A stretch of DNA of 64,000 nucleotides from NCBI RefSeq assembly GCF_017348835.2, contig NZ_CP071375.1. The stretch is one strand, 5' to 3'. The DNA comes from Escherichia coli. Lineage in GTDB: Bacteria; Pseudomonadota; Gammaproteobacteria; Enterobacterales; Enterobacteriaceae. Positions 45,523-46,975 of this stretch are shown here, one piece after another; the first letter of the stretch is position 1, and the number at the start of each line of letters is the position of its first letter. The position numbers and the translations under genes were made by a program. The notes beneath the pieces are model-generated. The model was not told the DNA's origin. It did no database searches and saw only the letters and a program-made list of their open reading frames with translations.

Positions 45523-46916
45523 GCGGTACCCTCACGACGTGGTGCGCGTTTGCGTGGACGACGAGTACGACGACGCGGTGACGGTTCTTCATCCAGCTCG
45601 TTGAGCATCCCTTTTTGGTCTGGTGGCGCGGAAACCTGGAACTCACCCCACCATTTCACCAGACGCTGCAATTCAGCGTTACGTTCAACTTCAGCTCGCA
45701 AGGCCAACAGGTCATAAGCCGCACGGAACTTAGGATGCTCCAGCAGTTTCCATGCGCGTTTACCCTGACGTCGGGACATACGCAATTGCAACTGCCAGAT
45801 ATCGCGGGTTAACGTCGTCAGGCGTTTCGGGATTGCCAGTGAACGGCAGGCTTCGTCCAGCACGTCGTTCATCGCCAGCGCGAAAGCGTCGTGATAGGTC
45901 AGGCCGCTTTCCTGGGCGATCTTCTGTGCCGTCTCCAGCAGTGGGTACCAGAACATGGCGGCAAACAGGAACGCCGGGTTCACGCGCATATCGTTATGGA
46001 TACGCGTATCGGTATTCTTCAGCACCTGTTCAATGATCCGCTCCATCGGGCTGTCGCCATTTTCCGTGAAGTAGCGGGTAATGGTCGGGAACAGCGGCTG
46101 GAACAGATGATATTCACACAGCAGCTTATAGGTTTCGTAACCGTAGCCCGCTTGTAGCAGTTTAAGCGATTCTTCAAACAGGCGTGCTGGTGGGATATCG
46201 TTCAGCAGGGTAGCGAGGCGAGGGATCGGTTCTGCGGTTTCCGGGCTGATGCGCATACCCAATTTGGCGGCAAAACGTACCGCGCGCAGCATACGTACCG
46301 GATCTTCACGGTAGCGCGTTTCCGGGTTACCAATCAGACGGATAACACCGTCCTTCAGATCCTTCATACCGCCAACGTAATCACGGACGGTAAAATCCGC
46401 TACGCTGTAATACAGGCTGTTGATAGTAAAATCGCGGCGCTGGGCGTCTTCTTCGATGGAGCCGAAAATGTTGTCGCGCAGCAACATGCCGTTTTGCCCG
46501 CGTTGGGAAGTCGTGCGGTCGCTGACGTTACCTTCGTGGTGTCCACGGAAGGTCGCAACTTCGATAATCTCCGGGCCAAACATCACATGAGCCAGACGGA
46601 AACGGCGACCCACCAGGCGGCAGTTACGGAACAGTTTGCGCACCTGCTCAGGCGTGGCGTTAGTGGTTACGTCAAAATCTTTCGGCTTTTTGCCGAGTAA
46701 CAGGTCGCGCACGCCGCCGCCAACCAGCCAGGCTTCGTATCCCGCTTTATTGAGCCTGTACATTACCTTCAGGGCATTTTCACTGATATCTTTGCGGGAA
46801 ATAGCATGCTGCTCACGCGGGATCACCGTCACCTGTGGACGGGCGACTGCCTGTTCAGCCTCGCTTTCCTCGCGGCTTAGCACCTTGCGGCAAAAATTAG
46901 CGACTCGGGTAAAAAT
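45519..46916 (-). CDS. pcnB: poly(A) polymerase I
   Basis: Nucleotidyltransferase motifs ([17 protein letters not shown]); ORF track begins at TTG 46937; reported initiation codon AUU is present at 46914-46916 (IFTRVANF...). Confidence 0.85.
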
Positions 46917-46975
46917 AGTACACCTCGGTAGTGTCAAACATCATTCAGGACAAAAAAATAGCGGCTAATCATAGC

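Follow-up and report, generated by a model that had tools for sequence, protein, structure and literature searches.

The AUU start codon of pcnB in Escherichia coli and the conserved synonymous sites that follow it

The pcnB gene of Escherichia coli is almost certainly initiated at the ATT at 46916..46914 on the minus strand of the window (the whole 64,000-nucleotide stretch of DNA analysed here), where a good Shine-Dalgarno (SD) sequence precedes a weak AUU codon that keeps poly(A) polymerase I (PAP I) low. The start is a re-observation. It has been textbook knowledge since 2002 and is carried by the reference annotation, and nothing new is reported about it here. The position of the codon, its SD, the joint conservation of the two and the lack of support for alternative starts are established in this analysis; the use of AUU, its limiting effect on expression and the toxicity of PAP I are taken from the literature, where the original study is known through the papers that cite it. 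The only new element is a near-freeze of synonymous sites in codons 1-12 and 41-43, seen across 78 species. The features are collected in Table 1.

Table 1. Features at the pcnB start, in window coordinates.
Feature	Position	Strand	Basis or remark
pcnB CDS, poly(A) polymerase I	45519..46916	-	465 codons plus stop; ORF list and RefSeq
ATT (AUU) initiation codon of pcnB	46914..46916	-	Sequence, RefSeq/K-12 annotation, 80/80 species
Shine-Dalgarno GAGGTG	46921..46926	-	4-nt spacer to ATT; duplex of -9.7 kcal/mol
Variable SD-ATT spacer	46917..46920	-	TACT, CACT, CACC, CAAC and others
In-frame TTG, mechanical ORF start, not real	46935..46937	-	7 codons upstream of ATT
Upstream in-frame TGA closing the pcnB frame	46941..46943	-	Sequence; stop at -27 in 30/80 species, at other positions elsewhere
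Codon-12 GTG, first canonical start downstream	46881..46883	-	Used by some gene callers, giving 454 aa
ATG codon 52	46761..46763	-	Start proposed in 1989 by Liu & Parkinson, as related in PMC2939334
Sigma-70-like promoter TTCTCA-17-TATGAT	46968..46996	-	9/12 match; overlaps the end of gluQRS
Frozen block, codons 1-12	46881..46916	-	Codon entropy and single-codon columns
Codons 41-43 (CGC AAA GAT)	46788..46796	-	Single codon each in 78/78; proposed 3' helix strand with codons 5-10

The pcnB gene lies on the minus strand, which the earlier note had not stated. That strand reads TGA(46943..46941) TGT TTG(46937..46935) ACA CTA CCG AGG TGT ACT ATT(46916..46914), followed by TTT ACC CGA GTC GCT AAT TTT. 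The mechanical ORF (45519..46937, minus strand, 472 aa) is opened at the TTG at 46937, and no ATG, GTG or TTG occurs in the pcnB frame between TTG 46937..46935 and the GTG of codon 12. The earlier note had held that only the TTG at 46935-46937 could open the frame, with which the ORF list agrees; that the ATT at 46914-46916 sits at the I of IFTRVANF, which the minus-strand reading bears out; and that the known N-terminus has no canonical start, which matches the RefSeq and K-12 coding sequences, both beginning at the ATT. In a RefSeq genome that is identical to the window, the start base of the PGAP pcnB CDS (WP_010723084.1, 465 aa) maps to 46916. The stretch around the start is identical to that of K-12 MG1655, in which b0143 spans 157729..159126 with its ATT at 159126..159124, so the gene does not differ from K-12 pcnB in codon, sequence or annotated start. 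The window is E. coli chromosomal DNA: a match to 46700-47100 is present in 5424 of 5426 complete E. coli genomes, and the 90 nt from -44 to +46 are identical in 5412 of these 5424. The protein is 100% identical to cluster P0002, "polynucleotide adenylyltransferase PcnB [Escherichia coli]", which carries the Pfam domains PolyA_pol (PF01743), RNA-binding (PF12627) and Arg-rich C-terminus (PF12626). The PDB entries 3AQK-3AQN cover residues 28-442 (3AQM matches with E = 8e-285); since these structures begin at residue 28, they do not inform the N-terminus.

The chromosomal context dksA-gluQRS-pcnB-folK was confirmed from the ORFs and the RefSeq features. The pcnB stop and the folK ATG overlap by 4 nt as ATGA (45519..45522, minus strand), which suggests translational coupling of folK to a very rarely translated pcnB. 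The folK start position is ATG in 38 of the aligned loci, GTG in 31 and a non-start codon in 9; in these nine either folK starts elsewhere or the alignment is a few codons off. The minus-strand gluQRS start differs by record, being ATG 47902 (308 aa) for MG1655 b0144 and ATG 47872 (298 aa) for PGAP. The latter ATG is found in 67 of 77 species.

The AUU start and the limitation of translation by it are credited to Binns & Masters (Mol Microbiol 2002;44:1287; pmid 12068810) in PMC2939334, PMC3561954, bioRxiv 10.1101/063800, PMC5499595, PMC4447247, PMC9410913, PMC2830850 and PMC9764084. As described by citing papers, the subject of the 2002 study was checks such as ATT-to-ATG fusions. Several of the papers citing Binns & Masters also name infC and pcnB as the only two E. 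coli genes known to have an AUU start. In reporters AUU yields about 1-2% of the AUG level (bioRxiv 10.1101/063800). PAP I is present at 30-50 molecules per cell, its overproduction leads to polyadenylation of mature tRNAs and kills the cells, and many proteobacterial PAP I genes may use AUU (PMC3561954). The earlier note had given AUU as the reported start and had argued that an inefficient start restrains a toxic poly(A) polymerase; both statements are in line with this literature, and the annotation coincides with the first. The published codon is the one seen here. Transcription from promoter pS2 begins at -263 to -265 relative to the ATT, and its -10 box is TAAACT (PMC2939334). In the window TAAACT lies at 47192..47187, which puts the transcription start near 47180, 264 nt from 46916; the pS2 numbering thus fits window position 46916. 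No statement on the pcnB start from ribosome profiling or N-terminomics was found in the literature searched. A 1992 paper by Cao & Sarkar reportedly contains N-terminal sequencing of the enzyme.

The conservation of the start was assessed on the pcnB locus of 80 species-representative genomes, all Enterobacteriaceae, with 86-100% protein identity; codon columns were analysed in the 78 colinear loci. The codon aligned with the start is ATT in 80/80 species, and GAGG is found exactly 6 nt upstream of it in all 80. The sequence 5' of the SD is divergent and carries indels, including frame-breaking 1-nt indels. In 43 of the 80 species the stretch from the upstream stop to the ATT contains no ATG, GTG or TTG. 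Residues 2-12 are invariant at the amino acid level in all 78 colinear loci. Fourteen columns of the gene are invariant isoleucine, and codon 1 is the only one written with a single codon (ATT); the other 13 mix ATT and ATC, and sometimes ATA. An in-frame ATT by itself is statistically unremarkable; its conservation exceeds chance. Complementarity to the 3' end of 16S rRNA was scored in the 20 nt before each candidate start. The duplex before the ATT (codon 1, -9.7 kcal/mol) ranks within the strongest 2.3% of the 1500 positions scored in this region.

Annotated starts disagree. Among the protein clusters listed, PcnB is 465 aa long (ATT), 472 aa (upstream TTG or ATG) or 454 aa (GTG of codon 12), and lengths of 447 and 450 aa also occur. 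A start at the TTG 46937..46935 would make the protein 472 aa long and the ATT an internal isoleucine codon. No other canonical start codon opens the whole ORF, many database entries among the matches listed are 472 aa long, the introduction of PMC3561954 once names UUG as the pcnB start, and the position is ATG in two Salmonella subspecies. However, the TTG (-21) has no SD upstream (+0.1 kcal/mol). At this position only 26 of 80 species have TTG; two have ATG, one has TGA and the remaining 51 a sense codon that is not a start. The frame is interrupted by a stop at -21, -18 or -15 in five species, and in several genera it is broken by 1-nt indels between the TTG position and the SD. The seven-residue extension is not conserved except for R-C, which is the SD read as codons, and the current curated annotation rejects this start. 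It is therefore highly unlikely that translation begins at the TTG.

The two Salmonella enterica subspecies, diarizonae (L021) and arizonae (L022), have an in-frame ATG 21 nt upstream of the ATT. This ATG lacks an SD, and the GAGGTG-ATT arrangement is intact in both. The large Salmonella enterica cluster P0013 is annotated at 472 aa, which is probably an over-extension.

Gene callers that do not accept ATT predict a start at the GTG of codon 12 (46883..46881) and a protein of 454 aa. The GTG is present in 80/80 species and 454-aa predictions are common among the matches listed. Nevertheless, it has no SD at a usable spacing (+0.5 kcal/mol) and the 11 codons that precede it encode the same residues in all 78 colinear loci. 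In distant relatives the changes in these codons follow a coding pattern, and distant homologs retain an equivalent basic N-terminal peptide. A start at codon 12 is thus extremely improbable. The same disagreement is met in more distant genomes. In Thorsellia (L085) the deposited protein begins at the GTG12 equivalent and in another relative (L083) the gene call extends upstream to a TTG; GAGGTG-N4-ATT is present in both.

A further proposal is a minor, truncated PAP I that would be translated from the ATG of codon 52 on messages that begin at the internal sigma-S promoter pS1, alongside the AUU-initiated protein. Activity of pS1 has been reported in vitro and, for ppGpp0 cells, in vivo, and Western blots show two anti-PAP I bands (PMC2939334). 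Codon 52 is, however, ATG in only 23 of the 80 species and a leucine codon in the other 57, and its SD is weak (-4.0 kcal/mol) and abuts the ATG. In addition, pS1 is silent in wild-type cells and the authors of PMC2939334 themselves call the truncated product unproven. A second product of this kind is unlikely.

The start at the ATT extends beyond the Enterobacteriaceae. The best 120 direct protein matches were all from that family, and the starts of distant homologs were read from representatives of 50%-identity clusters and their contigs. The GAGG(TG)-ATT arrangement is found in four relatives at 55-67% protein identity. These are Ca. Erwinia haradaeae (62% identity), with TTGAGGTGTCCT-ATT-TTT-ACC-CGA; a relative at 67% identity, with ACGAGGTGTACC-ATT-TTT-TCC-CAG; Thorsellia kenyensis (62%), with TTGAGGTGTATT-ATT-TTA-AAA-CGA; and a metagenomic relative (55%), with GAGGATAGAGTT-ATT-ATT-ACA. 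The homologs sampled at 47-53% identity start with ATG or GTG. Among the few pcnB homologs sampled, ATT is confined to relatives within the Enterobacterales. Where distant homologs have ordinary starts, their N-termini align to within 0-4 residues of the one that the ATT defines in E. coli, in keeping with the suggestion in PMC3561954 on AUU use by many proteobacterial PAP I genes.

One homolog at 54% identity (L086) encodes the conserved N-terminal peptide TIRRVIELCKKVIG about 90 nt upstream of its called ATG (locus position 401). No ATG, GTG or TTG can open TIRRVIELCKKVIG; the only candidates are a CTG or an ATC just past the upstream stop, and a different lineage may here have a further non-canonical start of pcnB. 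At the N-terminus of most PcnB homologs there is a short motif of basic and hydrophobic residues (MIKKLFKKIF, MIRKLIKVFTRK and the like, in clusters P0128, P0137, P0148, P0153, P0164, P0177 and others), which has its counterpart in the E. coli protein. The motif is outside the solved structures, with their first residue at 28, and is possibly a membrane- or partner-binding helix.

A promoter scan of 46700-47300 gave TTCTCA-17-TATGAT as the sole match, and TATGAT...GCCGCTATTTTTT is kept in most genera. This is probably the published major promoter pB, in which case the leader would be about 45 nt long and the in-frame TTG would lie inside it. The TTG is also the first half of a perfect TTGACA hexamer (46932..46937, minus strand) in the 26 TTG-bearing species. 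The hexamer may be part of a minor published promoter, p1 or p2, and have no coding role; no -10 element was found at the proper spacing from it. There is no Rfam family at or near the pcnB leader, and the sole match in the window at the Rfam gathering score is the sRNA tp2 (RF02030, 103 bits) at 10732..10845 on the minus strand. No sRNA interactome regulator at the 5' end of pcnB was found in the literature searched.

A start of this kind is known from infC, which encodes IF3. In infC a strong SD also precedes the ATT, as GGAGGA-7 nt-ATT compared with GAGGTG-4 nt-ATT in pcnB, and the weak AUU limits expression in both genes (PMC5499595, PMC4447247, PMC9410913). The infC AUU differs in being part of an autoregulatory loop, in which IF3 represses its own start codon (PMC5499595, PMC9410913). 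The features of pcnB are those of an AUU-initiated gene of the infC type, with ATT at the curated N-terminus, a suitable SD spacing and extra conservation. To our knowledge PAP I has no role in start-codon selection; the pcnB AUU would therefore be a fixed attenuator or a passive sensor of IF3 activity. The unrelated ebpA gene of Enterococcus faecalis, an unrelated organism, has an ATT start that attenuates pilus expression. There too the codon restrains a costly protein and is missed by standard annotation (PMC4447247).

In the best-supported account, which is the published one, the well-matched SD GAGGUG, 4 nt upstream of the start, would position the 30S subunit, and initiator tRNA would pair with the AUU with a mismatch at the third base. 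IF3 would proof-read against this pairing and leave a few per cent of AUG-level initiations. By analogy with infC, the discrimination by IF3 would be the limiting step at pcnB; no report of IF3 dependence of pcnB was found in the accessible literature. The rarity of initiation would hold PAP I at tens of molecules per cell, a level that matters because an excess polyadenylates mature tRNAs and kills the cell. Overall 5' structure was considered as the limiting factor and rejected. The leader folds no better than shuffled sequences (z = +1.28), and in a second comparison the overall stability was again not above that of shuffles or of synonymous recodings (z -0.22 and about +0.5), so that the native sequence is no stabler than its recodings. 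Secondary papers describe a "poor ribosome-binding site", but the SD is a perfect 6-mer; the limitation may therefore lie partly elsewhere.

The freeze of synonymous sites is seen in the codon columns of the 78 colinear loci. There are 270 amino-acid-invariant columns with degenerate codons, and only 13 of these are written with one and the same codon in all 78 species. Ten of the 13 fall in two blocks, seven at codons 1, 2, 4, 5, 7, 9 and 12 and three at codons 41-43; codon 4, for example, is CGA in 78/78. Codons 1-12 have a mean codon entropy of 0.167 against a gene mean of 0.93. Every other 12-codon window in the gene has a higher value, and a mean this low never arose in 20000 random draws. 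The neighbouring genes in the same loci have no (folK) and one (gluQRS) single-codon column, although this is a thin control, with four scorable N-terminal codons in folK and none in gluQRS.

In the RNAalifold model of 25 diverse sequences, +14..+27 is paired with +122..+137 (13 bp), two further helices lie inside this one, and the SD is paired with codons 2-4. When the 78 sequences were folded individually, the main segment of the long-range helix (B2) had a median pair probability of 0.77. The native level of pairing between the two regions was reached by 152 of 2700 synonymous recodings (5.6%). In our reading of the model, the third positions that do vary in the helix stretch would be unpaired, or would be C/U opposite G. 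There is no sign of compensatory change: none of 29 pairs varies on both sides and 22 are invariant, and shuffled controls give the same values. The freeze is also tighter than pairing needs, as tolerated G-U alternatives are unused. Among the distant relatives, the helix has uncompensated breaks in those at 67% and 62% identity (L083 and L082, with three in L083) and is absent in Thorsellia (L085). The predicted SD hairpin, in which CGAGGUG pairs with UACCCG and the AUU lies in the loop, was rejected. It has a median pair probability of 0.05, and the Thorsellia sequence does not allow it to form.

The region from the SD to codon 12 and codons 41-46 might form a conserved cis-acting RNA element that modulates use of the AUU, although we regard this as doubtful. 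The element may take the form of the modelled long-range helix (+14..+27 / +122..+137), which would occlude the downstream half of the ribosome-binding site, or it may be a sequence-specific binding site for a regulator. The freeze may also stem from a finely tuned AUU context, from an RNA- or protein-binding site, or from the internal promoter pS1, which is located between the ATT and codon 46 (PMC2939334).

The weak AUU start helps the cell to hold a toxic RNA-tailing enzyme down to tens of copies. It also makes pcnB a standing annotation trap, in which the length of the protein depends on whether the caller allows ATT, and gene callers miss the ATT in more distant Enterobacterales as well. 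The freeze of synonymous sites is the only element that might repay experiment. If the cis-acting element is real, the translation of pcnB would be adjustable, beyond mere attenuation, and this could explain why the ribosome-binding site has been called poor despite a perfect SD.
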